This document shows positions 7,503-42,016 of a stretch of DNA of 64,000 nucleotides, piece after piece. This stretch comes from Alteromonadaceae bacterium (lineage in GTDB: Bacteria; Pseudomonadota; Gammaproteobacteria; Enterobacterales; Alteromonadaceae), in assembly GCA_041583135.1 (NCBI GenBank), contig JBFHGJ010000001.1, positions 41,337 through 105,336 of the forward strand. Reading direction: 5' to 3'. The translations under genes and the position numbers were made by a program. The first letter of the stretch is position 1. Each line of letters begins with the position of its first letter. The notes beneath the pieces were generated by a model. That model was not told the origin of the DNA. It saw only the letters and a program-made list of their open reading frames with translations, and ran no database searches.

Positions 7503-7925
7503 ATGAGCTTATATAACGTATTTAATATTGCGGGCACGGGCATGAGTGCTCAATCGGTTAGGTTGAACACCACCGCCAGTAACATTGCCAATGCCAATAC
7601 CGTTTCCAGTAGTGTCGATGAGACCTATCGTGCTCGCCATCCGGTTTTTGCCGCCGAGCTGACAAAAGCTGCCACCGAGCAACAAGGGGAGTCTGTTGGC
7701 GTTGCCGTTAAAGGTATCGTCGAGAGTGATGACCCGTTAAAAATCGAATATTCGCCGAATCACCCCATGGCTGACAAGGATGGCTATATCTACAAGCCCA
7801 ATGTCAATGTGATGGAAGAAATGGCCAATATGATCTCCGCGTCGAGAACTTATCAGACCAATGTACAAGTTGCCGATGCGGCAAAGAGTATGTTGCAAAA
7901 AACCATTTCACTTGGGCAACGCTAA
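7503..7925 (+). CDS. flgC: flagellar proximal rod protein FlgC
   Basis: Motif ASNIANANT, 140 aa, gene order. Confidence 0.93.
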   Translation: MSLYNVFNIAGTGMSAQSVRLNTTASNIANANTVSSSVDETYRARHPVFAAELTKAATEQQGESVGVAVKGIVESDDPLKIEYSPNHPMADKDGYIYKPNVNVMEEMANMISASRTYQTNVQVADAAKSMLQKTISLGQR

Positions 7926-7967
7926 CGCGTCGTTATTTTGACGATTAGATGATTTGAGGTAACAGTC

Positions 7968-8651: not shown

Positions 8652-8750
8652 CACAGATAGCCTACGCAACATTGAATTTTTATAGCCGAATAACGATTCG
8701 GGTAACCACTAAGATAAAAGTCGCGGTATAAGCGAAAATCGAGGTAGATT

Positions 8751-10088: not shown

Positions 10089-10109
10089 ACTCGGCTGCAC
10101 TTTAGTTCG

Positions 10110-10133
10110 AAAGGCCGCCTTGGCGGCCTTTTC
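10110..10133 (+). terminator. rho-independent terminator after flgE
   Basis: Stem AAGGCCGCC/GGCGGCCTT followed by Ts. Confidence 0.7.
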
Positions 10134-10212
10134 CTTGATAGCCGTCTACCCCTCGTTATATTTTCTCCATTTTTCGTCTTTTTTCTCTACTTTTCCCCGC
10201 GTCAAAATCTTT

Positions 10213-10228
10213 TGGCACTCATATTGCT
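10213..10228 (+). promoter_or_regulatory. sigma54 promoter for flgF-flgJ
   Basis: Near-consensus TGGCAC-TCATA-TTGCT, about 50 nt upstream of the flgF ATG. Confidence 0.7.
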
Positions 10229-16801: not shown

Positions 16802-18022
16802 ATGCGGTTATCTACCAACCAAATTTACAACAATGGTGTCGAGAGTATTCTTGACTCCCAAGAGCGTCTGACCAGAGCCCAAGATAAGATCACCAATCAA
16901 ACCCGTCTTTTAACGCCCTCGGACGACCCGGCGGCGACTGCTCAGGTGATGCGCCTGAATGAAAAAATCGAATTAAGTTCTCAGTACGAAACCAACGGTA
17001 CGGTATTGGAAAACCGTCTCAATGCCGAAGAAGTGGCGCTTAATGCGCTCAAATCATCGATGGACCGCGTCAAAGTGTTGGCCATACAAGCCGGTAGCGG
17101 CTCTTTGTCTGATGCCGATAGAAACAGCATCGCCTTTGAGCTTGAGAGTGTCAAAGGTGAAATGTTTGATCTAATGAACACCAAAGATGCCAACGGTGAC
17201 TATATCTTTGCTGGTTTCCAGTCGAATGTACAACCGTTCGAATTCAATCCGACCACCAAAAAATATGACTATAAGGGCGATGAAGGCGAGCTTAGGCTAC
17301 AGGTGTCTACCTCGGTGACTTTGTCGTCTAATGATAATGGTAAAAAGTTGTTCGAGAATGTCGATAGCCGTTTGCGGGTGGATGATGTCACCAGCACTGC
17401 CGGCGTGCCCGGCAGCTTTGTCACCGTAGAGAACCAAAACGTCTTCGATAACTTTCACAATGCCAATTATGACACGACGACGCTTGCCAACAATACCTTC
17501 AATGTTACGGTCAGTGCGCCGAATAGTTATAGCATTACGAATGCAGGTACTGGGGCGGCGGTCGTGGCCGGTACTTATGCACTGTCAGACGGCATTGACT
17601 TTAATGGTCTTAAAATAAAGCCAGGTGGTACTGCCGGCACAGTCAGTTTTACCTTATCGCCACCTGAGAAAAAGAATATTCTCACTACTTTAGAAGAATT
17701 GACGACAGCGCTTAAAACCCCTGGCGGGTTTACACCAGATATGAGTGAGTCGATAAAAGATGCCATGGTGCAGACTGACAATGCGAAAAATCAGGTGCAT
17801 TTGGTGCAGTCTTCTTTGGGCGGCCGTCTTAATGTGGTCAGTCGCATCATGTCGTCAAATGTTGAGATCAATCACGCCAACCAAAAAACGCGTTCTGATC
17901 TGGCCGAAGTCGATTACGCTGAAGCGGTAACCGAACTGATGAAAGAAGAGTCTGCTCTTGAAGCTGCACAGGCAACTTTTAGTCGAGTGAGCAGATTGAG
18001 TCTGTTTGACTACATTTCTTAA
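16802..18022 (+). CDS. flgL: hook-filament junction protein FlgL
   Basis: MRLSTNQIYNNG N-terminus, flagellin-like termini, position after flgK. Confidence 0.9.
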   Translation: MRLSTNQIYNNGVESILDSQERLTRAQDKITNQTRLLTPSDDPAATAQVMRLNEKIELSSQYETNGTVLENRLNAEEVALNALKSSMDRVKVLAIQAGSGSLSDADRNSIAFELESVKGEMFDLMNTKDANGDYIFAGFQSNVQPFEFNPTTKKYDYKGDEGELRLQVSTSVTLSSNDNGKKLFENVDSRLRVDDVTSTAGVPGSFVTVENQNVFDNFHNANYDTTTLANNTFNVTVSAPNSYSITNAGTGAAVVAGTYALSDGIDFNGLKIKPGGTAGTVSFTLSPPEKKNILTTLEELTTALKTPGGFTPDMSESIKDAMVQTDNAKNQVHLVQSSLGGRLNVVSRIMSSNVEINHANQKTRSDLAEVDYAEAVTELMKEESALEAAQATFSRVSRLSLFDYIS

Positions 18023-18744: not shown

Positions 18745-18807
18745 GTTCTCAGGTTAATGCCCTGTTGTTGTTTGACAGGGTAAACCAATAGCATGGGAGA
18801 TAAAATC

Positions 18808-19719
18808 ATGGCTTTATATGTCAATACTAACGTATCGAGTTTGAACGCGCAGCGTCAGCTGATGAATTCAGGTAGTACCCTGGATACCGCCTTCAAACGC
18901 TTATCATCTGGTTTGAGAATCAACAGTGCTGCCGATGACGCGGCAGGCTTGCAGATCTCAGACCGTTTAACCAGCCAAATTCAAGGCTTGGAACAAGGTA
19001 ACCGTAACGCGAACGACGGTATCTCTTTGGCGCAAACCGCAGAGGGCGCGCTTGATGAGATGACCAACATGTTCCAACGTGTTAGAACCTTGGCTTCACA
19101 AGCGGCGAATGGCTCCAATACTGATTCCGACCGCGCGGCATTGCAACTTGAAATGCGCGAGCTTGGTGAGGAGATCAACCGTATCTCAAGCGACACCACT
19201 TTTGGTGGTACCAACTTGCTTGACGGTACCTACAATGCTGAGTTCCAAGTTGGTGCCGACTCAGGTCAGGTCATTAGTATGACCATGACTGCGGTAACCA
19301 GCTTTGATGGTTCAGCCGTGAGTGTCGGTTCATTCACCGTGAGTGATATTGCGACTTCTGCAAGTACCATTACCGGTGTAGGTGCTGGTGTTGCTACTGC
19401 GTTTTCTGCGGTAACTTCGCTTTCTTTCACCTCAACTGACAAAGCACAGTCAATCTTGGCCAACGTCGATGCGATGATTGGTGCGATTGATGCCAAACGT
19501 GCCGAGCTTGGTGCGGTTCAAAACCGATTCCAGTCTACTATTCGTAACCAGACCAACATCGCTGAGAACCTAAGTGCTGCACGTTCACGCATTAAAGATG
19601 CTGACTTTGCCACTGAAACCGCAGCTCTGACCAAAGCGCAGATCCTGCAACAAGCAAGTAGTACAATTTTGTCCCAGGCCAACCAACGGCCTCAATCGGC
19701 CTTGTCATTGTTAGGATAA
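18808..19719 (+). CDS. flagellin paralog 1 (303 aa)
   Basis: [19 protein letters not shown]-terminus, [13 protein letters not shown] motif, C-terminal [15 protein letters not shown] set the start at the ATG behind GGGAGA, trimming 5 codons from the ORF-track start. Confidence 0.95.
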   Translation: MALYVNTNVSSLNAQRQLMNSGSTLDTAFKRLSSGLRINSAADDAAGLQISDRLTSQIQGLEQGNRNANDGISLAQTAEGALDEMTNMFQRVRTLASQAANGSNTDSDRAALQLEMRELGEEINRISSDTTFGGTNLLDGTYNAEFQVGADSGQVISMTMTAVTSFDGSAVSVGSFTVSDIATSASTITGVGAGVATAFSAVTSLSFTSTDKAQSILANVDAMIGAIDAKRAELGAVQNRFQSTIRNQTNIAENLSAARSRIKDADFATETAALTKAQILQQASSTILSQANQRPQSALSLLG

Positions 19720-20140: not shown

Positions 20141-21055
20141 ATGAGCTTATTTGTTAACACTAACGTATCTAGTCTGAACGCCCAACGTCAATTGATGAAC
20201 TCTGGTACTCAACTGGACACCGCGTTCAAACGTTTATCATCAGGTCTTCGTATCAACAGTGCAGCTGACGACGCCGCCGGTTTGCAAATCTCTGACCGTT
20301 TGACCTCACAAATCTTAGGCTTGGAACAAGGTAACCGTAACGCTAACGACGGTATCTCTTTAGCGCAAACTGCTGAGGGTGCCTTGGACGAAATGACCAA
20401 CATGTTCCAACGTATTCGTACCTTGTCAGCCCAAGCAGCCAACGGTTCAAACACCGATTCTGACCGCGCTGCCTTGCAATTGGAAATGCGTCAACTAGGT
20501 GCTGAAATCAACCGTATTTCAACCGATACGACTTTCGGTGGCACCAACTTGTTAGATGGTACTTATAATGCTGAATTCCAAATCGGTGCCGATGCCGGTC
20601 AAACCATCAGCATGACCATGACTGCTATCACCAGCTTCGACGGTTCTGCGGTAAGCGTGACTTCATTTGCAGTTAGTGACTTGGCAAGTGCGGCGAGTAC
20701 CGTAACAGGCGTAGGCACAGGTGTTGCGACTGCCTTCTCGGCAATCACTTCTTTGTCATTCACATCGACCGACAAAGCGCAATCTATCTTGGCCAACGTT
20801 GATGCGATGATAGGTGCCATTGATGCCAAACGTGCAGAATTAGGTGCGGTACAAAATCGATTCCAATCGACTATCCGTAATCAAACCAACATCGTCGAGA
20901 ACCTAAGCGCTGCCCGTTCACGCATTAAAGATGCCGACTTTGCCACTGAGACTGCCAACCTGACTCGTGCGCAAATTCTGCAACAGGCCAGCAGCACCAT
21001 TTTATCTCAGGCTAACCAACGTCCTCAGTCAGCATTGTCACTGTTGCAAGGTTAA
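20141..21055 (+). CDS. flagellin paralog 2 (304 aa)
   Basis: Flagellin N- and C-terminal domains, highly similar to paralogs 1 and 3. Confidence 0.95.
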
Positions 21056-22220: not shown

Positions 22221-23132
22221 ATGGCCTTATATGTAAATACCAACGTATCGAGCTTAAATGCACAACGTCAATTAATGAATTCAGGCAACACCTTAGACAC
22301 CGCGTTTAAACGCTTGTCTTCAGGTTTGCGGATCAACAGCGCGGCAGATGATGCTGCCGGCCTACAAATCTCTGACCGTTTGACCAGCCAGATCCAAGGT
22401 CTTGAGCAAGGTAACCGAAACGCTAACGACGGTATCTCTTTAGCGCAAACCGCTGAAGGTTCAATGGACGAAATGACCAACATGTATCAACGTATTCGTA
22501 CCTTGGCCGCACAGGCTGCCAACGGTTCAAATACCGATTCAGACCGTGCAGCGTTGCAATTGGAAATGCGTCAGCTAGGCTCAGAGATCAACCGTATCTC
22601 TACCGACACCACATTTGGTGGTACTAACTTGCTAGATGGCTCCTTTAAAGCCGAGTTCCAAGTCGGTGCCGATGCCGGTCAGGTGATCAGTATGACGATG
22701 ACTGCGGTTACCAGTTTCGACGGCTCGGCGGTAAGTGTAACCTCTTTCGCGGTGAGTGATTTGGCCCAGGCTGCAAGTACAATTACCGGTGTAGGTACTG
22801 GTGTGGCAACGGCATTCTCAGCCATTACCAGCTTGTCGTTCACTTCAACCGATAAAGCCCAATCCGTATTGGCCAACGTTGATGCGATGATCGGTGCCAT
22901 TGATGCGAAACGAGCGGAGCTTGGTGCGGTACAAAACCGATTCCAATCAACCATTCGTAACCAGACCAATATTGCTGAGAACTTGAGCTCTGCACGTTCT
23001 CGAATCAAAGATGCAGATTTTGCGACTGAAACTGCGACTTTGACCAAAGCGCAAATCCTGCAACAGGCAAGCAGTACCATCCTGTCACAGGCTAATCAGC
23101 GTCCACAATCAGCCTTGTCATTGTTAGGCTAA
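22221..23132 (+). CDS. flagellin paralog 3 (303 aa)
   Basis: Flagellin N- and C-terminal domains. Confidence 0.95.
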
Positions 23133-24588: not shown

Positions 24589-25500
24589 ATGTCATTATTT
24601 GTAAATACTAATGTGTCGTCTCTTAACGCACAGCGCCAATTGGTCAAATCAGGTTCTGAACTTGATACCGCGTTTAAGAGATTATCATCAGGTCTTCGCA
24701 TCAACAGTGCAGCAGATGACGCTGCCGGTATGCAGATCTCAAACCGCTTGACCGGTCAAATCCAAGGTCTTGAGCAAGGTATCCGAAATGCCAACGATGG
24801 TATTTCAGTTGCTCAAACTGCTGAGGGTGCATTGGATGAAATGACCACCATGTATCAACGTATCCGTACTTTGGCATCGCAAGCATCAAATGGTTCGAAC
24901 ACTGATTCTGACCGTGCGGCTTTGCAGTTGGAAATGCGTGAGTTGGGTGAAGAACTTAACCGTATCTCTACCGATACTTCTTTCGGTGGTACTAACTTGT
25001 TAGACGGTAGCTACAACGCTGAATTCCAAGTCGGCGCCAATGCTTCACAAACCATCAGCATGACCATGACTGCAATTACCAGCTTCGATGGTTCTGCCGT
25101 CAGTGTTACTTCATTCGCTGTTAGTGATATCGCCACTCAAGCCAGTACCATTACCGGCCAAGGCGCAGGTGTTGCGACTGCTTTTGCTGCTGTGACTTCA
25201 TTGTCATTTACCTCAACCGACAAAGCACAATCGGTTTTGGCTAACGTTGACGCCATGATTGGTGCCATTGATGCCAAACGTGCAGAGTTAGGTGCGGTAC
25301 AAAACCGTTTCCAATCGACTATTCGTAACGGAAGCAATATCGCCGAGAACTTGCAAGCTGCACGTTCACGTATTCAAGATGCTGACTTCGCCACTGAAAC
25401 CGCTCGTTTGACCAGAGCACAAATTTTGCAGCAAGCCAGTACATCTATCTTGTCGCAGGCAAACCAGAGGCCACAATCTGCTTTAGCCCTAATCGGGTAA
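24589..25500 (+). CDS. flagellin paralog 4 (303 aa, the most divergent of the four)
   Basis: Flagellin N- and C-terminal domains, with substitutions in otherwise invariant blocks ([24 protein letters not shown]). Confidence 0.95.
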   Translation: MSLFVNTNVSSLNAQRQLVKSGSELDTAFKRLSSGLRINSAADDAAGMQISNRLTGQIQGLEQGIRNANDGISVAQTAEGALDEMTTMYQRIRTLASQASNGSNTDSDRAALQLEMRELGEELNRISTDTSFGGTNLLDGSYNAEFQVGANASQTISMTMTAITSFDGSAVSVTSFAVSDIATQASTITGQGAGVATAFAAVTSLSFTSTDKAQSVLANVDAMIGAIDAKRAELGAVQNRFQSTIRNGSNIAENLQAARSRIQDADFATETARLTRAQILQQASTSILSQANQRPQSALALIG

Positions 25501-28206: not shown

Positions 28207-28533
28207 GTGACTACCTCATCGTTTGCCACATTGGTTGAGCAAACCAATGCCTGTAGCGTCAAAATTTATCAGCATTGTGAAACTGCCGAGTGGGACTCAT
28301 GTGTCCCATTAATTGCCGAACGCGAACAATTGTTAGCGCAGCTTTTGCAATTGAGTAGTGAGCTGGCACCTGCCGAAATTGAAATTCTTGCCGGACTATA
28401 TCAAGATATATTGAAAAACGATGAGGTATACTTACCTCGTGCAGAGTCGGCCAAAGGTGAGATCAACCTACAACTACGGCACATTAAGCGTGCTGAACTC
28501 AATGCCTTGCCGGCCTACCGTAAACACTCGTAA
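28207..28533 (+). CDS. putative FliT-like flagellar chaperone
   Basis: 108-aa helical protein immediately after fliS, with a GTG start. Assigned by position and size only. Confidence 0.45.
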   Translation: MTTSSFATLVEQTNACSVKIYQHCETAEWDSCVPLIAEREQLLAQLLQLSSELAPAEIEILAGLYQDILKNDEVYLPRAESAKGEINLQLRHIKRAELNALPAYRKHS

Positions 28534-28565: not shown

Positions 28566-30722
28566 ATGTCCGCAGAAAATGACAACAAAAAGGATGAGAT
28601 CAGCGAGATCCTCGCAAACGCTGAACAAAAGGTGCAGCAGTTAAGTGAGCGTGCGCAAAAGGAAAAGGCGTTAGAGAAAAAAATGGGGCAGCGTTTTGAA
28701 AAAAACATTGTGGCGCTGAAAAAATACCTGCCGGATATCGCAGCCCAGTTCCGTCATTACAAACCTGAATCTATGCAGTTCTTCTGCGCGCCCAGCGGTG
28801 ATGCCAATATCGTTGAAAGCACAAGCGGCGTACCGCTGTACAGTGATGATCCGATTGAGCAATGTCGTGATCAGGTGCAGAGAAACATCGAACAGCCAAA
28901 ATACACCAGCATTGGTTTTTCTAGCGAAGAAGAACAAAGCAATACCTTTATTCATAGCCGTTATATGGGGGCTATTTATAAGGAATTTCTCAAAGAAAAA
29001 GAAACCCTTGAGCCGCTGACGTCAATCCCTGAACACCTCGGGGCGATGATCATGTTTGGGGTCGGACTAGGCTACCATCTCCCGGCATTGTTTGAGCAGG
29101 TAACTATCGACCATATGTACATCTGTGAGCCTTCAAACGATTTATTCTATGCTAGCCTATTTACCTGTGACTGGGAATATGTGCTGAAAACCATCGATGA
29201 AAAAGACGGTGTGTTGCATTTAAGACTGGGTGTCGATTATCAAAAGTTCACCGACGACTTTATCAATGAATTAAAAGATAAAGGCTCGTTCAATGCCTCC
29301 AATGCGGTGTTATATCAGCACTACCCATCGGAGCAGATCCAAAGGATCATTAATGAGTTCTCCCAGCAGTTTCATATGGTGGCTATCGGATGGGGCTTCT
29401 TTGATGATGGTGTGATCAGTATTGCCCACGATTACGCCAATGCCCAAAACAAAACGCCTTACCTAAAAAAGACCGCCGCGCTGCCAAGACACTGGAAAGA
29501 TGTACCGGCGATCATCGTGGCCAACGGACCGTCTATTGATGCCACCATTGAGTATGTTAAAGCCCATCAAAACGATGGTATCGTTTTTTGCTGTGGTACC
29601 GCAATAAATACACTGCTTAAGCATGGTATCGTGCCGGATTTTCATGTTGAGCTTGAAAGAACCAAGCTGACCTATGACTTGTTGGTGGAGTTTGTTGATA
29701 ACGAGCAGATGAAGCAAATGAACTTTCTCTCGGTCAACGTGATGCATCCAAGAGCCACTGAACTATTTAAGTGGTCGGGTCTGGCCTTTAAGCCGGCTGA
29801 GCCTTCAACCATCATTTCATCTGAGTTTATCGATAAAGACAGCACCTTTACTCGTCTAAGTTACTGTAATCCGCTAGTGGCAAACACGGCTTTGTCGTAT
29901 GCCTGTTATATGGGCTTTAAAGAAATTTATTTGTTTGGTGTCGATAACGGTTATGTCACCAAAGATCATTTCCACTCAAAACAAAGCTACTACTACACCG
30001 AAGATGGTGAGGAGAAAACAGAGATCACTAAAATGATGCTAACCGACCAGTTAGAGGTCGAAGGTAACTTTGGTGATACTGTGTTTACTACGGCATTTTA
30101 TGATACCGGTCGTCATTCGCTCGGGCATTTGCTCGGTCGTTACCCTAAGGTCAATTGCTACAATTGCTCTGACGGTGCCAAGATAAACCATACCTTCCCG
30201 GTTTATCCCGAGGACTTGCTGATCTCCCCTTTGAATGTTGATAAAAATGACATCGTTGAGTACATCAAATCTGAGTTCTTTGCGCCACAAGATCACGACC
30301 CCGATGCCTATCAGAACTGGCTTGCGATTAATAAGTTTGACGATATTGTCGATGAAATGCTGGCATTTACCGACAAAAAGTTTACCTCCCGTGGCGAGTT
30401 GGCTACGGCGTTGAAATTACAAGTCCGTTATCTATATTCGTTCTCGCAAACGCGTTTTCGCCACCTTTACTTTATGTTGGATGGCTCAGTCATTTATGCG
30501 CATACTGTCTTTAGAATGGCGCTTTACGGTTTTGCCGATGAGAAAGAAATGCTCAGAGTGATGCATAGCCTGTTGGATCTGTATCACGAGTATTTGCGTG
30601 AAGCGAAGAAGAAGTTTAGACGTGTGCTTGAAGAAGTGGATGAGCAAGACTTTAAAGTGCTTGAAATGTTCAGAAAAGGCCACAAGAAAGCGGCAGATGC
30701 CAATGCAGGCAATCACGAGTAA
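28566..30722 (+). CDS. maf: motility-associated factor (Maf, DUF115/MptE-like) putative flagellin nonulosonic-acid glycosyltransferase
   Basis: 718 aa with a central AIIVANGPSID motif typical of Maf/DUF115 proteins. It sits beside flagellin and pse genes. Confidence 0.75.
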   Translation: MSAENDNKKDEISEILANAEQKVQQLSERAQKEKALEKKMGQRFEKNIVALKKYLPDIAAQFRHYKPESMQFFCAPSGDANIVESTSGVPLYSDDPIEQCRDQVQRNIEQPKYTSIGFSSEEEQSNTFIHSRYMGAIYKEFLKEKETLEPLTSIPEHLGAMIMFGVGLGYHLPALFEQVTIDHMYICEPSNDLFYASLFTCDWEYVLKTIDEKDGVLHLRLGVDYQKFTDDFINELKDKGSFNASNAVLYQHYPSEQIQRIINEFSQQFHMVAIGWGFFDDGVISIAHDYANAQNKTPYLKKTAALPRHWKDVPAIIVANGPSIDATIEYVKAHQNDGIVFCCGTAINTLLKHGIVPDFHVELERTKLTYDLLVEFVDNEQMKQMNFLSVNVMHPRATELFKWSGLAFKPAEPSTIISSEFIDKDSTFTRLSYCNPLVANTALSYACYMGFKEIYLFGVDNGYVTKDHFHSKQSYYYTEDGEEKTEITKMMLTDQLEVEGNFGDTVFTTAFYDTGRHSLGHLLGRYPKVNCYNCSDGAKINHTFPVYPEDLLISPLNVDKNDIVEYIKSEFFAPQDHDPDAYQNWLAINKFDDIVDEMLAFTDKKFTSRGELATALKLQVRYLYSFSQTRFRHLYFMLDGSVIYAHTVFRMALYGFADEKEMLRVMHSLLDLYHEYLREAKKKFRRVLEEVDEQDFKVLEMFRKGHKKAADANAGNHE

Positions 30723-30765: not shown

Positions 30766-30791
30766 AAAGGGCTGGAAATTCCAGCCCTTTT
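30766..30791. terminator. bidirectional terminator between the convergent maf and fusion genes
   Basis: AAAGGGCTGGAA/TTCCAGCCCTTT palindrome with an A-run upstream and a T-run downstream. Confidence 0.8.
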
Positions 30792-30899: not shown

Positions 30900-33038
30900 T
30901 TATTTAATAAATATCTCTTTAAACATATTCACCACTTGCTCTACCGTTGAGGTCTTAACATGGCGTTCATCGGTATCCCAAGCATCTTTAATACATTCGG
31001 TGACCAGCTCATAGCTCGGTAGGTAGTACACATCTTCATTGTTGTTGACCAATTCTTCGGCCGCCACCCTAAGCACGGCTTTGGAATGGGTGTTGGCGCT
31101 GATCACATGATGGGTGTCGGCGCGACCGGTGGCCAAAAATGGAATAGGAGAGACACTGATGATCAACTTAAACTTCGGATTATGGGCTTTACAAATATCG
31201 TAAAAGGTTTGAATGTTATCGATATTCTCCTGTACCGTCAGGGTCTTATGACGGACCAAAGGATACATATAAGAGCGCGGGTTGCGTGACATCACCGAGC
31301 CATCTCTAAACTGCCAGCACTCATTAAGACCTAAGGTAATAATAAATACTTCGGTTTGCTCAAGGGCCATGCGAGTGGCTTCAATGTGCTTGTTGTAATC
31401 TTCAAAGTAGGCATCTTTCGATAAAAACAGCACATTTTCACGATAAGGATCCATCCAAGTACCATCTTCTTGCTCAAACAACAGCTGCTTGGTGCGTTTG
31501 ACATCAAAAGCCCGTTCGGCCATTTGGCGAAAGCTTGGGGTGTTGAATAAGATCCCATAGTTGGCGCAGAACTTGGCATACTTGTCACCTGGCGTATAGC
31601 CATCGACGATGATCTTAGAGCCGGGGTCGTCATTGCGCTCAGTCACCACATAGTTGTAGCCTTGCTCTTGAAAGACTCTGGCAATTTCAAAGGCAAAACA
31701 ACTGCCCGCAGAGCCGATTGGGGTGCTCATATCCATGATGGGATATTTTTTTACAAAAGGGAGCGCATCGAACTTGCTGGCGGGCTTGGTCGGGTGATCT
31801 GGCGAGGGCCAGAAAATGCCCTCAGGCTCAGGTTTATTCTTCGTTGAATAACGGCTGATGGCGTCTTGAACTTCTTCTTCATACTCGGCCAAACGTAAGA
31901 GGTTGACAATATTCTCGCTGCCAAGCTCACCTTGCCAGTTAATGCTATGCTGATAGGAGTTTTTCAAGGTTTCCATCAACGATTCAATCGAATTCAATTC
32001 TACCAAATCTGGATCCAACTCAATCAAACGCTCAAACATCAGATCGGCAAAGTGCTCGTTAGAATACATGTTGTGCAGCAACAGTTTCAAATAGGCAGGC
32101 GAGCGGATCTCGCCGGTCGATGGGATCAATACCCGGTTGGCCATCTCTTGTGGATTACGATTGTAGTAATCCAGCAGCGCCGGAGGGCCGTCGTCGAAAG
32201 AGATGCTGTCGTTTTTCGGCATCCATATTTCTTCACGGGTAAACTGATAAGGATAGGGTGAAGGAATGAAACACAGTTGCAGTACGTAGCGTGAAGCCTT
32301 ATCCGGTACTACACCAATATGGGCCAATTGATTGGGGTTGAACAACAGCGCATCGCCGGCTTCAATGTCTTCATACATGGTTTCAACCGGCTCAATGCCC
32401 TTAGCACGACACAGTGGGCCTAAGTCTTCGACGCGGTCGCTGACATTATTGAAGATATAGCCGGCATTTTTGAGCTGAGTGCTTGAATGTAGATCCAAAA
32501 ACTTGGTATTGCCGCCGTGTTCTTCATAGGCGTTGAGATAAATCAGCATTTTCAGATGCTTTTCCGGGCCGCCGTCACAGTGCCAATAAGTTGACACGAT
32601 GCGTTTTTCCATGTCGGCTTCCGATTCCAAAAAGGTATACCAGTAAAGCATGTACTCACTGTTGAAGTACGAGCAAATATAGCTGTCGATTTCCTCGGTT
32701 AAGATCATCGGCAGTAGCTTGTCCATAAACTTTGGATGGTAAATGGTGGCCAACGAGTTCGAGCCTTCACGGATAAAGATCTTACATAGATCTTTAGGCA
32801 AAACACCTTTAAGTCGGGTCTGGTGGTTGCGGGTCAACTCACAGTCTTGCAGGACTTCCGGACGCTTAAAGTTATCTTGCGAGGCTTTATACAGTTCGTT
32901 GTAACGCCTCGAGTTTTCGTAAAGGTTTCGCAGTTTTATATGTGAATCTGGGGTGAGGTAATAGGTGACCCCTTCGTATTCTTCTTCATATTGCCGTACC
33001 GGACCGACGCCGGTAAATTGTATCGTTTTTACTTTCAT
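30900..33038 (-). CDS. fusion protein: N-terminal PhyH/2OG-Fe(II)-oxygenase-like domain plus C-terminal GSCFA-family (SGNH-like) domain
   Basis: In ORF-track numbering: WH155-C-D157GG, H242 and R252 fit an HxD...H...R pattern. The literal GSCFA motif is at 447-451 (IGSAGSCFAFEI), and D692-E-R-H695 lies near the C-terminus. ATG 33038 is preferred over TTG 33044 as the start. Confidence 0.6.
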   Translation of the reverse strand: MKVKTIQFTGVGPVRQYEEEYEGVTYYLTPDSHIKLRNLYENSRRYNELYKASQDNFKRPEVLQDCELTRNHQTRLKGVLPKDLCKIFIREGSNSLATIYHPKFMDKLLPMILTEEIDSYICSYFNSEYMLYWYTFLESEADMEKRIVSTYWHCDGGPEKHLKMLIYLNAYEEHGGNTKFLDLHSSTQLKNAGYIFNNVSDRVEDLGPLCRAKGIEPVETMYEDIEAGDALLFNPNQLAHIGVVPDKASRYVLQLCFIPSPYPYQFTREEIWMPKNDSISFDDGPPALLDYYNRNPQEMANRVLIPSTGEIRSPAYLKLLLHNMYSNEHFADLMFERLIELDPDLVELNSIESLMETLKNSYQHSINWQGELGSENIVNLLRLAEYEEEVQDAISRYSTKNKPEPEGIFWPSPDHPTKPASKFDALPFVKKYPIMDMSTPIGSAGSCFAFEIARVFQEQGYNYVVTERNDDPGSKIIVDGYTPGDKYAKFCANYGILFNTPSFRQMAERAFDVKRTKQLLFEQEDGTWMDPYRENVLFLSKDAYFEDYNKHIEATRMALEQTEVFIITLGLNECWQFRDGSVMSRNPRSYMYPLVRHKTLTVQENIDNIQTFYDICKAHNPKFKLIISVSPIPFLATGRADTHHVISANTHSKAVLRVAAEELVNNNEDVYYLPSYELVTECIKDAWDTDERHVKTSTVEQVVNMFKEIFIK

Positions 33039-33119
33039 GAGCAATTAAAGTCCAAAACAGGTTTCTACTGATACTTGATTTAAGTGAAGCAAACAATGGG
33101 CCGATTTGCTAATGACTTT

Positions 33120-34172
33120 TTATTTGGCGATCATTTCATGCTTGAGCGCACTACCGCGTTCAATGTCGCAGGCGGCTGTTTTGCCTAGCACCTCGTCGTA
33201 GAACTTCGGCTCAAGCCCAAACCCCGGACGGATACGACGAATGTTTTGCGCGCTGAAGGCTTCGCCTTTTTTCATGTCGGCCACCACGTAAATCGAACGG
33301 CGGAACTTTAAGTTGCCACTTTCGGCCGCCTTGGTGGTGTAGTCGCCTTGTCCTAGTGCTTGCCACGCCTCTTTTGCGCTGCGACACAGCAGCGCCAGCT
33401 CCTCAGGCTCTAGTGAAAAGGCCGCATCCGGGCCACCATCTTCACGTTTTAAGGTGAAGTGTTTTTCTATGACATGAGCACCCAATGCGACACTGGCAAC
33501 TGCCGCTGTGACGCCCAAGGTATGGTCCGATAGCCCGATACAACAATCAAAGTCTTGTTGCAGCCTCACCATGCTAAGCAAATTCGATTGCTCGATTGGG
33601 GTGGGGTAACCGCTGATGCAATGCAACAAAATAATGTCTCTGGCGCCATGCCGACGGGCCGTTGTCACCGCCTGTTCAATTTCTTGTTGATTGGCCATAC
33701 CGGTAGACATGATCAGCGGCTTGCCGGTCTTGGCAACTTTTTCGATGAGCATCACATCGGTCAGCTCAAACGAGGCGATTTTGTAGGCTGGTGCGCCCAA
33801 TTGCTCCAGCAGTTCAACCGCAGATTCATCAAATGGCGAGCTGAATATGGTGATCCCCAACTTGGCGGCTTCATCAAACAGTTGTTGATGCCATTCCCAA
33901 GGCGTGTGCGCCCATTCATAGAGCTGATAAAGCTGCTGACCATCCCACAGCCCGCCATCAATAAGAAAGTCGGGCTTATCACAGTCGATGGTCATAGTAT
34001 CGGCGGTATAGGTTTGCAGTTTGACCGCGCTGGCACCGGCCTTTTTGGCCTCACGAAGGAGTGCTATTGCGCGGTTGATATCGCCGTTGTGGTTACCGGA
34101 GATCTCTGCGATAACATAAGGCGGGTGATTGTTGCCGATGCCGACACCATCAATATGTATTTCATGATTCAT
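33120..34172 (-). CDS. pseI: pseudaminic acid synthase (NeuB family)
   Basis: PPYVIAEISGNHNGD and HCISGYPTP motifs. Start set at the ATG behind GAGGGAG, which overlaps the end of the upstream gene by 11 nt. Confidence 0.85.
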   Translation of the reverse strand: MNHEIHIDGVGIGNNHPPYVIAEISGNHNGDINRAIALLREAKKAGASAVKLQTYTADTMTIDCDKPDFLIDGGLWDGQQLYQLYEWAHTPWEWHQQLFDEAAKLGITIFSSPFDESAVELLEQLGAPAYKIASFELTDVMLIEKVAKTGKPLIMSTGMANQQEIEQAVTTARRHGARDIILLHCISGYPTPIEQSNLLSMVRLQQDFDCCIGLSDHTLGVTAAVASVALGAHVIEKHFTLKREDGGPDAAFSLEPEELALLCRSAKEAWQALGQGDYTTKAAESGNLKFRRSIYVVADMKKGEAFSAQNIRRIRPGFGLEPKFYDEVLGKTAACDIERGSALKHEMIAK

Positions 34173-35646
34173 GTTGTTTACTCCCTCGTTGATACCAGTT
34201 ATCGCCGATTGGCGTAAAACCGGCCTTGGCAAACGCTTTAATTGAAGCACTATTGTGCGCATCGATATAGGCTAGCAAGGTTTTTTCTTGGTGAAGCTCA
34301 GCCAGCAGCTTGAGTGCCAAAGGGCCAAGTCCTTGACCCAAGCCCTGGGGCGCGATAGCAATGGATACTTCGTGTCCGTTTGTTGTTGGGTTGAGCCGGA
34401 CAAAGCCGAGCGGTTGTTTGTCTTTTACCAGTAGATAAAAATCAATTTCTGGCGATTGCATGACTTTGCCGAACCAGCGTTGATGGTCGCTGAGCTTCGG
34501 TGGCTTGGGATCGCGAGCAAAGCGCCTTGTTTCAGGGGCTTGCTGCCACTGATATAACACCATCATATCCGGCCAGTCTACGCGCTCAAGATGATACCGT
34601 GAAGCATTGCGCAACTGCTGTAGTCGTTGCGTCAGTTCGCTGATACCGCTACCGTCACAAACTTTGGCGGCTTGTTTGGATAAGCTTTGCAATGGTTCTT
34701 TCGCGTCTACAAATGCCGTGAGCATCGGTAGCAGATGAGTATCAACCTGCGCTGCTGTCATGGTGCCGATGGCAGCCCCACTGTCGGCGGCTGCCTGAAC
34801 AATATGGGCTTGATTGTCTGCCGCGCAGATCAGAATATTCGGCAGGCCCAAACAGCAGCGTTCCAACATGGACGTTCCGGCGGCTGCGATAGCCATGTCG
34901 GCTTGGGTGATCACCTCTGCCATATTCTCGACATTCACTTTCAAGCTGATCCCACTTCGCTTTGCGACATATTCTCTTATGCGGTCTAAATGTTTGGCTT
35001 GAGCACTTAAAACCACCGTCACTTGAAATCGTTTTGTGTCGAGCTGGGCCAAAACCTGTTCAGTCAGATTGTCAGGATCGGTCGCGCCCAAACTCACCAA
35101 AATATGTTTCACTTCTTTGGTTTGCTCACGCTTGGCCAATGCTTGTTGTCGTTGTTCAATAAATTGCTGACGCAATAGAGCATATTTGGCCCCGACAATC
35201 AGCTGCTGGCATCTGTCATCAAGCCATGGTTGATAGTGGGCTTGGTTTCGAGCTAACGATTGGTCAAATAGCAGATCGCAGTGATAGGGGCGGTTGGCCA
35301 AATCGTCGATGACCATCAGGTGTTGGCACAGTGGGGCCATTTGCTTGTGCCATTTTGCATCTAGCTGGTAGTGATCAACCACAATCAAGTCGGGATATAG
35401 CGCTTCGAGCACTGCGCGCGAGGCAATGGCGTCAGCTTGCTGACAAAAGGCTTGGTGACCGGGAATAATCGATACGCCAAAGCCTTGGTGTAAAATCAGC
35501 TCGACCATATCTCCCGGCGCTTTGCGGCAAATAAAATGAATATAGCAACCCTGTTCGCGCAGCGCTTCGGCGAGTGTGAGGCAGCGGTAAATATGGCCGC
35601 CACCAATGTCTTTTGAGCCGTCGGCGCGAAAGACGATAACCGCCAT
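34162..35646 (-). CDS. pseG: bifunctional PseG (UDP-sugar hydrolase) and GNAT N-acetyltransferase (PseH-like) fusion
   Basis: N-terminus VFRADGSKDIGGGHIYRCLTLAEAL is PseG-like. The C-terminal ~150 aa is GNAT-like (GLGQGLGPLALKLL). Confidence 0.8.
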   Translation of the reverse strand: MAVIVFRADGSKDIGGGHIYRCLTLAEALREQGCYIHFICRKAPGDMVELILHQGFGVSIIPGHQAFCQQADAIASRAVLEALYPDLIVVDHYQLDAKWHKQMAPLCQHLMVIDDLANRPYHCDLLFDQSLARNQAHYQPWLDDRCQQLIVGAKYALLRQQFIEQRQQALAKREQTKEVKHILVSLGATDPDNLTEQVLAQLDTKRFQVTVVLSAQAKHLDRIREYVAKRSGISLKVNVENMAEVITQADMAIAAAGTSMLERCCLGLPNILICAADNQAHIVQAAADSGAAIGTMTAAQVDTHLLPMLTAFVDAKEPLQSLSKQAAKVCDGSGISELTQRLQQLRNASRYHLERVDWPDMMVLYQWQQAPETRRFARDPKPPKLSDHQRWFGKVMQSPEIDFYLLVKDKQPLGFVRLNPTTNGHEVSIAIAPQGLGQGLGPLALKLLAELHQEKTLLAYIDAHNSASIKAFAKAGFTPIGDNWYQRGSKQHES

Positions 35647-36938
35647 CAGCGCACCTTAAAAATTGGCTTGAGCACAGGACAGCGCAGCTGTTTATCCAAC
35701 GTGCCGTTATCGTCATAGTGCTTAATTTGCGCCAAAATATCGCCATAGGCGTCGAGCAGCATGTCGATATGCTTGGGTTGATGGGCAAAGTTGAGGTTGT
35801 GGCTGCCATTGGTGATGATTCCTCGGGCAAACAATTCCTGTAACCAATAGGTTTTTATGGTCCAAGCGTCAAAGTGACGTCCGTCTTTACCGACCAGAAA
35901 GCTCCAACTTGGATGCCCTGCCGTTGCGTAGAGGTGATTGATGCCTAAACTGTCAATCAGCTTGTTTAAGCGATTGAGCAGGTCCTCGCCAAGCTGATGA
36001 ATGTGACCTAGCGCATTTTCACTACGGATTTTTTCGATGCAGGCTTTGCTGGCGGCCAAGGCCATGGTATCGCCACCAAAGGTGCCGGAAAAAAAGATCT
36101 CTGTCATCAAGGCCATTACGTCGGCTCTGCCGACCACTGCGGATATCGGATAGCCGTTTGCCATGCCCTTGCCAAAAGTCGCCAGATCTGGGGTGACATC
36201 AAACAATTGCTGGGCACCGCCGAGGCTAAAACGAAAGCCGGTAATGGTTTCGTCGAAGATCAACAGCGCGCCGTGCTGATGGGTCAAATCTTTTACTTTT
36301 TGCAAAAAATCTGCTGTGGGATAGGACAAATTCATCGGCTCTAAAATCACCGCAGCAAACTCGCCTTGGTGGCTTTCAAGTACGGTTTTTAACGAGTCGA
36401 TATCGTTATAGCCAAACGGATGGGTCAATGCCTTGGTTGCTCCGGGGACGCCCAAATTGCGAGAGGTGCTGCCGATATACCAATCTTGCCAGCCATGATA
36501 GCCGCACACCGCGACGTGATCTTTGCCGGTATAGGCGCGGGCTAAGCGGATAGCCGCGCTGGTGGCATCTGAGCCGTTTTTACCAAAACGTACCATTTCA
36601 GCGCAGGGAATAAGCTCACACAGAAGCTCTGCCACTTCAAATTCAAGGCGGTGGGGCAGCGAGAAAATAGCACCCGCCTGAACCTGTTCAATAACCGCTT
36701 GGTTGACGTCTTTGTCGCCATAGCCGAGGCTGATACAAAGCAATGCGCTCATAAAATCGAGGTAGCGATTGCCATCGACGTCAATCAATTCGCAACCCTC
36801 GCCACGCTCGGCGAAATAGGGGCTGACGCCTTGCGGCAACGACAACATGCTTTTGGAAAAGGTTTGCGAGCCTAGAGGGACGGTTTTAAGCGCTTGTTGT
36901 AAAAACTGCTGCGAGCGGCTGAAATTATCGATTGTCAT
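35646..36938 (-). CDS. class-III PLP aminotransferase (glutamate-1-semialdehyde aminomutase-like)
   Basis: 430 aa with GSDATSAAIRLAR, DETITGFR and TFGKGMANG (PLP lysine) motifs. Confidence 0.8.
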   Translation of the reverse strand: MTIDNFSRSQQFLQQALKTVPLGSQTFSKSMLSLPQGVSPYFAERGEGCELIDVDGNRYLDFMSALLCISLGYGDKDVNQAVIEQVQAGAIFSLPHRLEFEVAELLCELIPCAEMVRFGKNGSDATSAAIRLARAYTGKDHVAVCGYHGWQDWYIGSTSRNLGVPGATKALTHPFGYNDIDSLKTVLESHQGEFAAVILEPMNLSYPTADFLQKVKDLTHQHGALLIFDETITGFRFSLGGAQQLFDVTPDLATFGKGMANGYPISAVVGRADVMALMTEIFFSGTFGGDTMALAASKACIEKIRSENALGHIHQLGEDLLNRLNKLIDSLGINHLYATAGHPSWSFLVGKDGRHFDAWTIKTYWLQELFARGIITNGSHNLNFAHQPKHIDMLLDAYGDILAQIKHYDDNGTLDKQLRCPVLKPIFKVR

Positions 36939-36944
36939 GGCTTT

Positions 36945-37658
36945 TTACTGTACCAAATGTTGGTTAACACAAAACAGCGCAGGCTGTTGCTGATAAAGCG
37001 CCATTACCTGATGATAATCAAATGCCGGGTCGGTAGGGTAGAGGCGACTGTATATGGCTTCGACTAGGGCAAAATCTTCCGGGTTATCGACTGTCCAGCG
37101 CTGCTGTGATAAGTCTTGTTCACAGCAAATCTCGGCCATGGCAAATTGCTCGGCATGATCGCGAATGTATTTGGTCACATGTTCTAGCTGATCTTGCGCG
37201 GTGGCTTGTTGCGCCATTAATTGTAAGGTGTTCATGGTCATCACTTCCACATCCAATCCATCGGGATAGGTGCGAGGAAACGCGTTGGTTGTGTAGTCGA
37301 AGTCACCGTCAAGGTGGCGCTCTATTACCTTATCGATAACGCCCGGGTCTATCAGTGGGCAGTCTGCGGTGAGCCTAACGACATGGCTAGGATGGTATGG
37401 TTTGGCACATTGATAAAAGCGCGATAACACATTGTCCAAGTCGCCACGAAAACAAGGTTGCTGAAACTGCTCGCAAGCGCTGGCAATGGCATCGTCGCTG
37501 GATTCTACACTGGTCGCTACGACAATCTTATCGATTCGCCGTGCCGTTTTGATGCGTTCGATTTGACGAAACATCATTGGCTTGCCCAGCAGCGGCTTCA
37601 ACACCTTGCCCGGTAGCCGATTGGACGACATCCTTGCTTGCAATATCGCAAGGATCAT
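36945..37658 (-). CDS. SpsF-like cytidylyltransferase (probable CMP-nonulosonate synthetase role)
   Basis: ILQARMSSNRLPGKVLKPL N-terminus as in SpsF-type cytidylyltransferases. Start taken at the ATG in an ATGA overlap with the upstream gene. Confidence 0.7.
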   Translation of the reverse strand: MILAILQARMSSNRLPGKVLKPLLGKPMMFRQIERIKTARRIDKIVVATSVESSDDAIASACEQFQQPCFRGDLDNVLSRFYQCAKPYHPSHVVRLTADCPLIDPGVIDKVIERHLDGDFDYTTNAFPRTYPDGLDVEVMTMNTLQLMAQQATAQDQLEHVTKYIRDHAEQFAMAEICCEQDLSQQRWTVDNPEDFALVEAIYSRLYPTDPAFDYHQVMALYQQQPALFCVNQHLVQ

Positions 37659-38521
37659 TTGCGCTTGCCCTCCGGCCACAAAAATGGACTGATCAACCCT
37701 TCTTCATGACAACTTAACTCGCTGGCGTCGAACGTTACTTTACCGGCCTGCTCATAAGCTTCGAGCACTTCTATCAGTTGCGCCTCAGAACAGACGCCAA
37801 ACACCAAGCGGTCCACCTCATCGTGGCGATGGGCGATAGTCAGTGCCGCTGCCAGCCGTGATAGACCGCTTTTTTTACACAAGCTGTCGAGCTTGTCAAA
37901 CAATGGCTTATACGGATGAAAGTAGGGGGGCAATTCGCCAAAGGGCATTAATAAGAGTCCTTGGAGGAAAATAGAACGGGCATGGACCTCAACGCCTTTG
38001 CCTTTAAGCCATTCGATGCAGCCGGTTGCAAAAAAGCGTTGATCGAACAGATTCATCGGCAATTGCACCAGATCCAGCGGAAACCGATCTTCAAGTTCAA
38101 AGGTGGGTTTGGTGTGATAGACCGAGATGCCGATTTTATCGACCAAGCCTTGCTGCTTTAAGGCGCTTAATTCGGCATAACTTTGTTCGGTCAAATCGGC
38201 GCTGTTGTGCAACATTAGGCCGTCGATTTTATCCATCTTAAGCCGGGCTAACGAGTGTTTGAGCGCTTCTGATATGCTGTAGTCATAGCTCTCTAAATCC
38301 GGCACCTTATCGACCAGCTTGAACTTGAGCTGATTTTTTGCCAGCAGCTCGCCAATGACGGTCTCAGAACTGCCGTAAACGCTACCGGTATCGAGCAGAT
38401 CAATGCCATGACTTGCCGCCGTAATGAGAATTTTCTCGACTTCTTCGACACTCACCTGACCTTTGGTATTGGAAATACCATAGTCCATGCCGAATTGAAC
38501 AGTGCCCAATGCCAATTTCAT
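37655..38521 (-). CDS. aldo/keto reductase
   Basis: MKLALGTVQFGMDYG N-terminus and AKR-like length. ATG 38521 behind GAGGA is preferred over TTG 38536. Confidence 0.75.
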   Translation of the reverse strand: MKLALGTVQFGMDYGISNTKGQVSVEEVEKILITAASHGIDLLDTGSVYGSSETVIGELLAKNQLKFKLVDKVPDLESYDYSISEALKHSLARLKMDKIDGLMLHNSADLTEQSYAELSALKQQGLVDKIGISVYHTKPTFELEDRFPLDLVQLPMNLFDQRFFATGCIEWLKGKGVEVHARSIFLQGLLLMPFGELPPYFHPYKPLFDKLDSLCKKSGLSRLAAALTIAHRHDEVDRLVFGVCSEAQLIEVLEAYEQAGKVTFDASELSCHEEGLISPFLWPEGKRK

Positions 38522-38532
38522 TTTAGCCGTCC

Positions 38533-40784
<2,252 letters not shown>

Positions 40785-41224: not shown

Positions 41225-42016
41225 ATGAAAATCAACGGTTTTCAACCTAATTTCATCAATCAAAACAGCAAAAGCGAAAGTTTGCTGGAAAAACTCGCCA
41301 GTGGCAAGCGGGTTAATTCTGCCGCCGATGATGCGGCCGGTTTACAGATCATCAATCGTCTAAGCGCTGAGCTAGACGGCTATTTGCGCGGCGCGCAAAA
41401 CGGCAATGATGGGGTTTCGTTGGCACAGACTGCCGATCAAGCCTTCTCGAATATCGGCGATACCGTATCGCGTATTCGCGAATTGACTGCCCGTGCCGGT
41501 AGTGGGGCGTTAAACGGCTCAGATCGCCAAGCCATTCAGCAAGAGATCAACAGCTTGACCGAAGAAGTCGGCTCTATCGCCGAAGATGCGACCTTCGCCG
41601 GTGTCGATTTGCTTAAATCCAGCGGCACCATCGGCATCAATTTAGGTCGTGGCGACAATATCAATGTTCAAACCAAAGATGTACAAACTGACTTAGGTGG
41701 TCTGGGCTTTAATACCATCGACGTTACCACAGCTGCCGGTGCACAAGCGGCACTGGGCACATTGGACAACATCTCTGATTACGTCAATAATGCTCGCGCA
41801 GAGTTGGGGGCGACGCAAAACCGCTTAGAGAGCAGTATTCGTGGTTTAAATGGTCAACATGAGCAGGCTGCTGCGGCTCGGGCCAGACGACAGGACACCG
41901 ATTATGCTCAAGCGGCGTCTGAGCGCGCACGCAACGACATTTTGCAGCAAAGTCAAATTGCGGTGCAGTCGCAAGCCAACCTTAATCGTCAACAGGCGCT
42001 CAACTTGTTGGCCTAA
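41225..42016 (+). CDS. divergent short flagellin-family protein (263 aa)
   Basis: Has [16 protein letters not shown] and the C-terminal ATQNRLES...LQQSQIAVQSQAN flagellin blocks. It lacks the VNTN N-terminal motif and is about 8 aa shorter before the AAG motif. Confidence 0.85.
   Translation: MKINGFQPNFINQNSKSESLLEKLASGKRVNSAADDAAGLQIINRLSAELDGYLRGAQNGNDGVSLAQTADQAFSNIGDTVSRIRELTARAGSGALNGSDRQAIQQEINSLTEEVGSIAEDATFAGVDLLKSSGTIGINLGRGDNINVQTKDVQTDLGGLGFNTIDVTTAAGAQAALGTLDNISDYVNNARAELGATQNRLESSIRGLNGQHEQAAAARARRQDTDYAQAASERARNDILQQSQIAVQSQANLNRQQALNLLA

Follow-up and report, generated by a model that had tools for sequence, protein, structure and literature searches.

A predicted 2-oxoglutarate oxygenase fused to a GSCFA domain in a flagellin glycosylation island of an Alteromonadaceae bacterium

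Results

Position and extent of the fusion gene

The window analysed here is a stretch of 64,000 nucleotides from an Alteromonadaceae bacterium (assembly GCA_041583135.1, contig JBFHGJ010000001.1, positions 41,337 to 105,336), and our subject is a gene on its minus strand whose product joins an N-terminal domain resembling Fe(II)/2-oxoglutarate (2OG) oxygenases to a C-terminal GSCFA domain. This fusion gene lies between maf and an operon for pseudaminic acid (Pse) synthesis, and its features are collected in Table 1. The longest open reading frame (ORF) in the ORF list spans 30900..33044 and would encode 714 aa from a TTG start; we took 30900..33038 as the likely gene because the homologues begin at the methionine of the ATG at 33038, which gives a protein of 712 aa beginning with MKVKTIQ. 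The initial annotation of the locus had likewise described a protein of about 712 aa but had counted its motifs from the 714-aa frame, so that each position is lowered here by 2. In the 712-aa numbering, for which the codon coordinates were checked, the motifs are W152-H153-C154-D155-G-G, H240 and R250 in the N-terminal half and G445-S-C-F-A449 and D690-x-x-H693 in the C-terminal half. With this shift, every motif that had been claimed is present.

The arrangement relative to the neighbouring genes also held up. The fusion gene is convergent with maf across a gap of 177 nt, and it lies on the same strand as the pseI/NeuB gene and downstream of it, the reported distance of 75 nt being that from the TTG and 81 nt that from the ATG. 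The gap to maf contains a perfect hairpin which, judging only by a consensus match, is likely to be a bidirectional terminator. A scan of the gap between NeuB and the fusion gene found no sigma-70-like promoter site, and the fusion gene is therefore likely to be co-transcribed with the pse operon. Neither a signal peptide nor a membrane segment was found in the fusion protein (maximum 19-residue Kyte-Doolittle mean, 0.88), which rules out export or a periplasmic action.

Table 1. Features of the fusion gene and its immediate surroundings in the window.
Feature	Position	Strand	Basis
Whole gene, 712 aa plus stop codon (30900-30902)	30900..33038	-	ORF list, translation, 135 homologues (nearly all full-length)
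N-terminal domain, aa 1-290, predicted divergent PhyH-like Fe(II)/2OG oxygenase (double-stranded beta-helix)	32169..33038	-	AlphaFold (AF2) model, Foldseek
H153-C154-D155, proposed first two iron ligands (HxD)	32574..32582	-	H153 in 109/120 and D155 in 114/120 homologues
H240 (proposed distal iron ligand) to R250 (proposed binder of the 2OG C5 carboxylate, +10)	32289..32321	-	H240 in 111/120 and R250 in 109/120
Middle region, aa 291-430	31749..32168	-	Predicted secondary structure, alignment
C-terminal GSCFA domain, aa 431-712 (PF08885, SGNH clan)	30903..31748	-	Pfam, Foldseek
G445-S446-C447-F448-A449, name-giving motif; S446 or C447 proposed nucleophile	31692..31706	-	S446 in 118/120, C447 in 119/120
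N572-E573 of 'GLNECW', equivalent of SGNH block III	31320..31325	-	Invariant in 120 homologues
D690-E-R692-H693, equivalent of SGNH block V (DxxH); H693 proposed general base	30960..30971	-	D690 in 120/120, R692 in 119/120, H693 in 118/120
Perfect 11-bp hairpin, AAAGGGCTGGA-loop-TCCAGCCCTTT, between maf and the fusion gene	30766..30790	.	Terminator scan
maf, flagellin nonulosonic-acid glycosyltransferase	28566..30722	+	Maf_flag10_N E=5e-64, MptE-like E=1e-32
Upstream operon, pseB-like gene through NeuB/PseI	33120..40772	-	Pfam; matching gene order in the gene calls of L083 and L084

The N-terminal domain has the predicted fold and the site residues of a 2OG oxygenase

The spacing HxD...H...R had originally been read as the iron/2OG site of a PhyH-type dioxygenase, with a Pfam scan suggested as a check. 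That scan turned out half as expected: PF08885 was matched, whereas PF05721 (PhyH) and other 2OG models were not matched by the window protein. An NCBIfam scan of the whole fusion protein returned no match, and PDB sequence searches with the whole protein and with a profile of the N-terminal domain (N-domain) gave no meaningful one. Structure prediction, the second check that had been suggested, was more informative. A full-length AlphaFold model built from 120 sequences reached a predicted local distance difference test (pLDDT) score of 93.2 and a predicted template modelling (TM) score of 0.70, with a pLDDT of about 90-98 in the N-domain. The 50 best matches listed in a Foldseek search of this model against the PDB were all Fe(II)/2OG dioxygenases, with a probability of 1.0 and about 220-270 aligned columns. 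PtlH (2rdr) was the best match (E=8e-7), and SnoK/SnoN, SptF, TlxI, P3H1 (8kc9), FtmOx1 and the halogenase domain of CurA were also listed. Sequence identity was 9-18% for the listed matches, and the target-normalised TM-score among these best 50 was 0.21-0.56, the upper value belonging to the proline hydroxylase H11.

Conservation points in the same direction (residue counts throughout are taken over 120 homologues and the domain-model scan covers 36). H153, D155, H240 and R250 are jointly kept in 109 of the 120 sequences. H240 and R250 fall on consecutive predicted strands (E240-242 and E250-260), as expected for strands VII and VIII of a double-stranded beta-helix (DSBH), and R250 aligns with the arginine of a canonical PF13640 protein in an hhalign match of low probability. 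Among the homologues scanned, matches to curated models were mostly weak and, where scored, at or below the cut-off (PF13640 in 4/36, PF03171 in 4/36); PF05721 was matched by the divergent homologue P0120 (E=7e-8). Residues invariant in an alignment with 28 stand-alone relatives (22-36% identity) are W152, H153, D155, T178, Y194, R202, G228, F233, H240, P245 and R250. The site has degenerated in a minority: H153, H240 and R250 are lost together in 8 sequences, all of which keep the GSCFA site, and 4 of these (P0013, P0017, P0019 and P0023) are extra copies sharing a contig or genome with an intact one. A ninth degenerate sequence, P0024, lacks H153 and R250 only.

An exhaustive search with the N-domain profile retrieved 745 clusters below E=1e-3, of which 326 also stayed below E=1e-10; stand-alone proteins of 250-320 aa make up the majority. 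A word-indexed search with a mixed N-domain alignment found 2 proteins only, one of which led to locus L087, described below. Since an Asp, and not Gly or Ala, sits after the first His, the site appears to be of the hydroxylase and not the halogenase type; a halogenase reading was ruled out by the conserved Asp155, with a weak WelO5 match in one homologue only. Taking the predicted fold and the conserved residues together, we conclude that the N-domain is a distinct family of PhyH-like 2OG oxygenases, missed by current models, with a predicted hydroxylase-type site. We consider it probable that the domain is catalytically competent.

The GSCFA domain and the helical middle region

The C-terminal assignment, also made initially from the motifs, is borne out by Pfam and by the conserved Ser, Asp and His positions. 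PF08885 matches aa 441-706 with 161.2 bits against a cut-off of 25 (E=4e-47) and is covered from position 2 to 237 of 237. A444, G445, F448, A449, G495, N572, E573 and D690 are invariant among the homologues, and the clade displays the SGNH pattern, with the block I Ser at the end of strand 1, the block II Gly (G495), the block III Asn and the DxxH of block V. The AlphaFold model places the GSCFA motif where strand 441-444 ends and helix 447-458 begins. A separate model of aa 301-712 (pLDDT 82) had SGNH/GDSL hydrolases as its best Foldseek matches, all of them weak and with a large root-mean-square deviation (E=2e-3 to 0.1, probability 0.6-0.98; for 4h08, E=2e-3 and probability 0.98). The listed neighbours include BT3161, carbohydrate esterase family 2 (CE2) enzymes, an acetyl-xylan esterase, platelet-activating factor acetylhydrolase (PAF-AH) and sialate O-acetylesterases. 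Sub-threshold matches to Lipase_GDSL_2 were present in 6/36 homologues. The GSCFA domain is probably catalytic.

Between the two domains lie a low-confidence linker (about aa 290-310), four helices (314-395) and a KP-x-P...FWP-x-P segment, in which K402, W410, P411 and P413 are invariant in the homologue alignment. This region accompanies the GSCFA domain in unfused proteins of ~420 aa, and by this distribution the helical middle region is part of the GSCFA half. Foldseek with the C-terminal model found no match for it among solved structures. We also considered it as a FliT/GlfM-like adaptor for flagellin or Maf and rejected this, as hhalign against the FliT-like ORF of the window gave a probability of 0.3.

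Homologues and domain architectures

The sources named for the 135 homologues are mostly marine Alteromonadales (Colwellia, Thalassotalea, Algicola, Pseudoalteromonas and Litorilituus), and the cultivable species among the carriers include Litorilituus sediminis, Thalassotalea castellviae and Thalassotalea euphylliae. Alteromonadales, Cellvibrionales (Agarilytica) and Oceanospirillales (Bermanella, Oleispira) have fusions of ~700 aa, as do a few other bins, and proteins consisting of the middle region and the GSCFA domain (mid+GSCFA, ~420 aa) occur in Rhodospirillales and others. In Bacteriovoracaceae and in the P0120 type, a more canonical PhyH-like N-terminus is joined to the same GSCFA clade. 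This second fusion type measures 787-788 aa (P0120, at 7860-10223 of locus L082, and a copy at L040), and the neighbourhood in L082 is non-flagellar. The initial annotation knew of no described example of the fusion, and our literature search found no paper on it, though sequence databases contain many copies of it, named 'GSCFA domain-containing protein'.

Tandem arrays of 2-4 diverged fusion copies were found in Algicola and in Alteromonadaceae/Colwelliaceae genomes (L001, L002/L012, L003, L004 and L008). Among the tandem copies that we were able to assign to individual proteins, each contig or genome had one paralogue that had lost H153/H240/R250 and retained an intact GSCFA site. Because the copies are diverged and some have dead oxygenase sites, these arrays suggest rapid diversification of a surface structure.

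The N-domain family has other partners as well. It is fused to an S-adenosylmethionine (SAM) methyltransferase (Methyltransf_11) in proteins of 544-547 aa (P0127, and P0142 of L078), and the gene of a stand-alone copy (P0126, L086) adjoins a Methyltransf_11 gene. Such fusion and adjacency would fit a logic of making a hydroxyl and then capping it; the neighbourhoods of stand-alone N-domain genes were read from mostly short contigs. On the GSCFA side, a 1031-aa protein with two tandem GSCFA domains is encoded at 1946-5038 of L060, in a metagenome-assembled genome (MAG) labelled Asaia bogorensis. Fusion contigs also carry the labels of a Klebsiella pneumoniae MAG (L034), a Chitinophaga pinensis MAG (L063), a Prochlorococcus single-cell genome (L066) and a Phenylobacterium MAG (L007). 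L034, L063 and L066 carry maf and/or pse genes besides, and all four labels look like binning or contamination errors.

Linkage to flagellin glycosylation genes and split forms

To place these architectures in context, we surveyed 77 loci, taking one genome per species; at this species level, the best relative was 64% identical. Of the 38 loci whose protein measures 600 aa or more, 26 have flagellin, maf or nonulosonic acid (NulO) genes within 10 kb, and 4 of the 12 exceptions are contigs made of tandem copies or just 2.2 kb long. The fusion gene is often less than 1 kb from maf, and elsewhere it abuts pseI, pseB, pseC or a flagellin gene. This linkage holds in Alteromonadales, Cellvibrionales and Oceanospirillales with a variable placement and a gene order that is shuffled between the orders. 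The co-occurrence with maf and pse genes that had been proposed for checking is thus seen at most of the loci with these long forms, and the link to flagellin glycosylation is supported both by conserved synteny across several orders and by a split pair in another flagellin island.

The split pair is found in two metagenome contigs, L087 and L088, in which a stand-alone N-domain gene is followed after 41 nt by a stand-alone GSCFA gene and then by a GNAT gene. The island around it holds pseB, pseC, two NeuB genes, CMP-sugar synthetases, Maf and a 1302-aa flagellin. The gene of this giant flagellin adjoins maf in both contigs (15757-19665 of L087 and 9492-13400 of L088). At seven Rhodospirillales loci, an N-domain gene abuts a mid+GSCFA gene. 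From these distributions, oxygenase plus GSCFA is a recurrent two-part module, which flagellin sugar islands of marine Gammaproteobacteria have recruited mostly as a fusion.

Flagellar and pse genes surrounding the fusion gene

The window covers a polar-flagellum region with flgT, flgA, a CheW-receiver gene, flgK and an flgL-like gene (16802-18022). Five flagellin paralogues are present (18793-19719, 20141-21055, 22221-23132, 24589-25500 (+) and 41225-42016 (+)), four of them of ~303-308 aa and one a shorter 263-aa copy that is set apart and adjoins fleQ. The genes that lead towards the fusion gene on the plus strand are flaG, fliD, fliS, a FliT-like 108-aa ORF and maf. The 108-aa ORF (28207-28533 (+)), directly 5' of maf, matches FliT modestly (E=3.7e-7), and the same slot before maf in Litorilituus (L080) is occupied by a 110-aa ORF without a Pfam match. 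GlfM, the subject of a recent preprint, is a small specificity factor of four helices whose gene lies in cis with that of Maf-2; the 108-aa ORF could be fliT or a GlfM-like factor. Heterologous reconstitution has been carried out for Maf systems of Shewanella.

On the other side, the operon reads in transcription order pseB-like, pseC-like, aldo/keto reductase (AKR), CMP-sugar synthetase (CTP_transf_3), class-III aminotransferase, a PseG-GNAT fusion, NeuB/PseI and the fusion gene, and beyond the operon lie the set-apart flagellin gene, fleQ and fliK. The class-III aminotransferase (35646-36938 (-)) and the AKR (37655-38536 (-)) are inserted within the pse operon and stand outside the canonical pseudaminic acid pathway. 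In the vicinity of the fusion they are seen again at 13/77 and 7/77 loci, respectively, and the making of an unusual substituent is a possible role for them. The PseG-like (Glyco_tran_28_C)-GNAT fusion has 494 aa (34162-35646 (-)); in the closest relative, L084, whose fusion protein is 80% identical, no such gene stands between those for the aminotransferase and NeuB. The CMP-sugar synthetase of the window has 244 aa and no esterase domain.

Discussion

Comparison with known systems

According to a 2022 review, GSCFA (Pfam clan CL0264) is one of five SGNH families without known activity or structure. The initial annotation had called the family functionally uncharacterised, which is now slightly out of date on account of one later genetic clue. 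In the biosynthesis of pseudotetraivprolide (PMC12828459, Dec 2025), the 2OG dioxygenase PipE hydroxylates a proline ring, O-acetylation of the resulting hydroxyl requires the GSCFA protein PipG together with PipD and PipF, as shown genetically, and the Cys of the GSCFA motif of PipG (Cys47) is important in vivo. The detoxin, rimosamide and miramide clusters each hold a TauD-type dioxygenase gene and a GSCFA gene (PMC9503745). The fusion resembles PipE/PipDFG in coupling a 2OG oxygenase to a GSCFA protein, here as a fusion or as split adjacent genes, with both systems cytoplasmic. In the Pip system, however, the genes are separate, the oxygenase is of the TauD type, PipD and PipF are needed as partners and the substrate is a peptide-polyketide, whereas our protein is covalently joined, has a PhyH-like oxygenase and a helical middle domain, and is encoded in a flagellin sugar island. 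No TauD-named protein was present among the 50 best structure matches listed.

With PhyH-like small-molecule dioxygenases (PtlH, SnoK/SnoN, SptF, FtmOx1 and proline hydroxylase H11) the N-domain shares the DSBH fold, the HxD...H motif and an Arg about 10 residues past the distal His, but it is only 9-18% identical to them and has its own invariant W152, T178, Y194, R202 and P245. Similarly, the GSCFA domain shares clan CL0264, the block pattern and its nearest structures with SGNH enzymes that act on sugar O-acyl groups (sialate O-acetylesterases, CE2 and acetyl-xylan esterases), while differing from them in its separate Pfam family, its weak structural likeness and a conserved Cys beside the Ser. 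The C-terminal SGNH esterase of NeuA is a precedent for an SGNH domain in a nonulosonic or sialic acid pathway. In Campylobacter, the tailoring genes of flagellin islands yield acetamidino, O-acetyl or N-acyl variants of pseudaminic and legionaminic acid (Pse/Leg). The fusion gene is like known tailoring genes of Maf islands in its position between maf and nonulosonate genes and in a copy number that varies between strains. Flagellin is known to carry O-acetylated variants of Pse (PMC3068675). Our literature search found no 2OG oxygenase, GSCFA or SGNH protein for flagellin glycosylation islands.

Proposed function and alternatives

We consider a role of the fusion in flagellar glycan tailoring somewhat more probable than not. 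As to what it does there, we propose tentatively, and at slightly less than even chances, a cytoplasmic bifunctional enzyme that would hydroxylate the flagellar nonulosonic sugar and then add an acyl group to that position or remove one from it. In this scheme, a soluble two-enzyme protein would tailor the Pse-type sugar that Maf places on flagellin, most probably while this sugar is still free or CMP-activated. The N-domain would bind iron through H153, D155 and H240 and 2OG through R250, and would hydroxylate an unactivated C-H of the sugar, for example at a deoxy carbon or in the N-acyl side chain. The GSCFA domain would work through an acyl-enzyme in the manner of SGNH enzymes, S446 or C447 being the nucleophile and H693 the base, and would transfer an acyl group to the new hydroxyl or remove one from it. 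We infer that both domains are active and that the sugar, and not flagellin, is the substrate; the order of the steps is taken from PipE/PipDFG. The specific sequence of hydroxylation and then O-acylation is a possibility that we hold a little less firmly than the scheme as a whole. Less likely again, and improbable, is the most explicit version, in which the module would install an acyloxy group on an unactivated nonulosonate carbon, be it deoxy C3, C9 or an N-acyl side-chain carbon.

In favour of the proposed enzyme are the conserved sites of both domains, the linkage to flagellin genes and the split forms described above. Recurrence of fusion or adjacency in unrelated lineages argues for consecutive steps on one substrate. 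The protein has neither a signal peptide nor a membrane segment, and a cytoplasmic location would suit a modification made before flagellin leaves the cell. For Maf systems, PMC4065374 reports that flagellin is modified before export.

Several points weigh against this proposal. Cytoplasmic SGNH enzymes are more often esterases than transferases. No second SGNH-, hydrolase- or peptidase-like gene comparable to PipD/PipF was seen among the neighbours of the fusion, where no direct sequence search with PipD or PipF was made. Aa 1-290 of the window protein match no Pfam or NCBIfam model and no hidden Markov model of 2OG oxygenases, and in structure the GSCFA domain resembles SGNH enzymes weakly (best E=2e-3). 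The distant GSCFA protein of the L087 split pair (29% identity) has neither N572 nor D690: the Asn has become Ile and the Asp is replaced, while the Glu, the GSCFA motif and the Arg-His are retained. As the PipG data also point to the Cys over the Ser, the exact catalytic set is uncertain. With regard to genomic context, flagellar and NulO genes were looked for around the split pair of L047 and the unpaired GSCFA gene of L072, both from Rhodospirillales, and none were found. Around some 30 mid+GSCFA genes that are not fused, no oxygenase gene lies within 10 kb, which shows the GSCFA half to be independent of this partner. Finally, two orphan copies lie in unrelated contexts, namely P0080 (L081), with a degenerate oxygenase site, and the PhyH-type P0120 (L082). 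Since L047, L072 and some fused orphans sit in non-flagellar neighbourhoods, the module is not restricted to flagella.

Alternatively, the two domains may make independent edits to the same glycan, the GSCFA domain being an O-acyl esterase that trims or regulates O-acetylation of the nonulosonate, the oxygenase acting at a different position and the fusion serving only co-expression and co-localisation. Esterases, among them the sialate O-acetylesterases and PAF-AH, are structurally nearest to the GSCFA domain, mid+GSCFA proteins commonly occur without an oxygenase, and paralogues with a dead oxygenase keep the GSCFA site; the protein is cytoplasmic and NeuA offers an esterase precedent. However, the repeated fusion or adjacency across unrelated lineages and the precedent of PipE followed by PipDFG speak for coupled steps, and we regard independent edits as improbable, though as the best placed of the alternatives.

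A somewhat lower chance is given to a protein substrate, flagellin itself or Maf, with the N-domain as a protein hydroxylase of Pro, Lys, Asp or Asn and the GSCFA domain acting on the protein or glycan afterwards. P3H1 (8kc9) is among the Foldseek matches and PF13640 is a prolyl-4-hydroxylase-type model. Moreover, the fusion accompanies nonulosonate clusters of differing content, as a comparison of the window with L080 illustrates, which argues for a constant substrate, be it flagellin or the sugar core. On the other hand, the closest structures are mostly those of small-molecule enzymes (PtlH, SnoK/SnoN, SptF and a free-proline hydroxylase), the module is also found away from flagellin genes, and the middle domain is unlike the FliT-like ORF beside maf, in a comparison that covered this ORF alone.

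The orphan copies in housekeeping neighbourhoods (L081, L082), and the split pair of L047, which adjoins genes for a CoA-transferase, a MaoC-hydratase, a short-chain dehydrogenase/reductase and an AKR, would instead suit a non-flagellar function, that is, a general small-molecule hydroxylase/esterase for, e.g., an acyl-CoA or lipid-like metabolite, carried in a variable island. This we consider unlikely, given that 26/38 fused loci lie near flagellin, maf or NulO genes in several orders and with a shuffled gene order, that the split pair of L087/L088 sits inside another flagellin island, and that the oxygenase site of the orphan P0080 is degenerate. It is very unlikely that one or both domains are dead and the protein is a scaffold or specificity factor for Maf: some paralogues do have clearly dead oxygenase sites and small cis-encoded Maf specificity factors exist (GlfM), but every proposed catalytic residue of both domains is intact in the window protein and strongly conserved.

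Significance

The gene is built from two known superfamilies and joins an unmodelled family of 2OG oxygenases to an SGNH family that is nearly an orphan. With the N-domain, ~745 clusters come together as a family of 2OG oxygenases that Pfam and NCBIfam models miss. For the GSCFA family, the fusion offers a test system, with a likely partner enzyme attached and a product that could be weighed on flagellin by mass spectrometry. If the proposed tailoring enzyme is correct, C-H hydroxylation would be a new chemistry for nonulosonic acids and could explain unassigned flagellar glycan masses in marine bacteria. Should the less likely acyloxy version prove true, it would represent the first 2OG-oxygenase-dependent hydroxylation of a bacterial sialic-acid-like sugar and a new class of Pse/Leg derivatives, and it would give the GSCFA family its first function at the substrate level, as a self-contained cytoplasmic O-acyltransferase that works without PipD/PipF-type partners.

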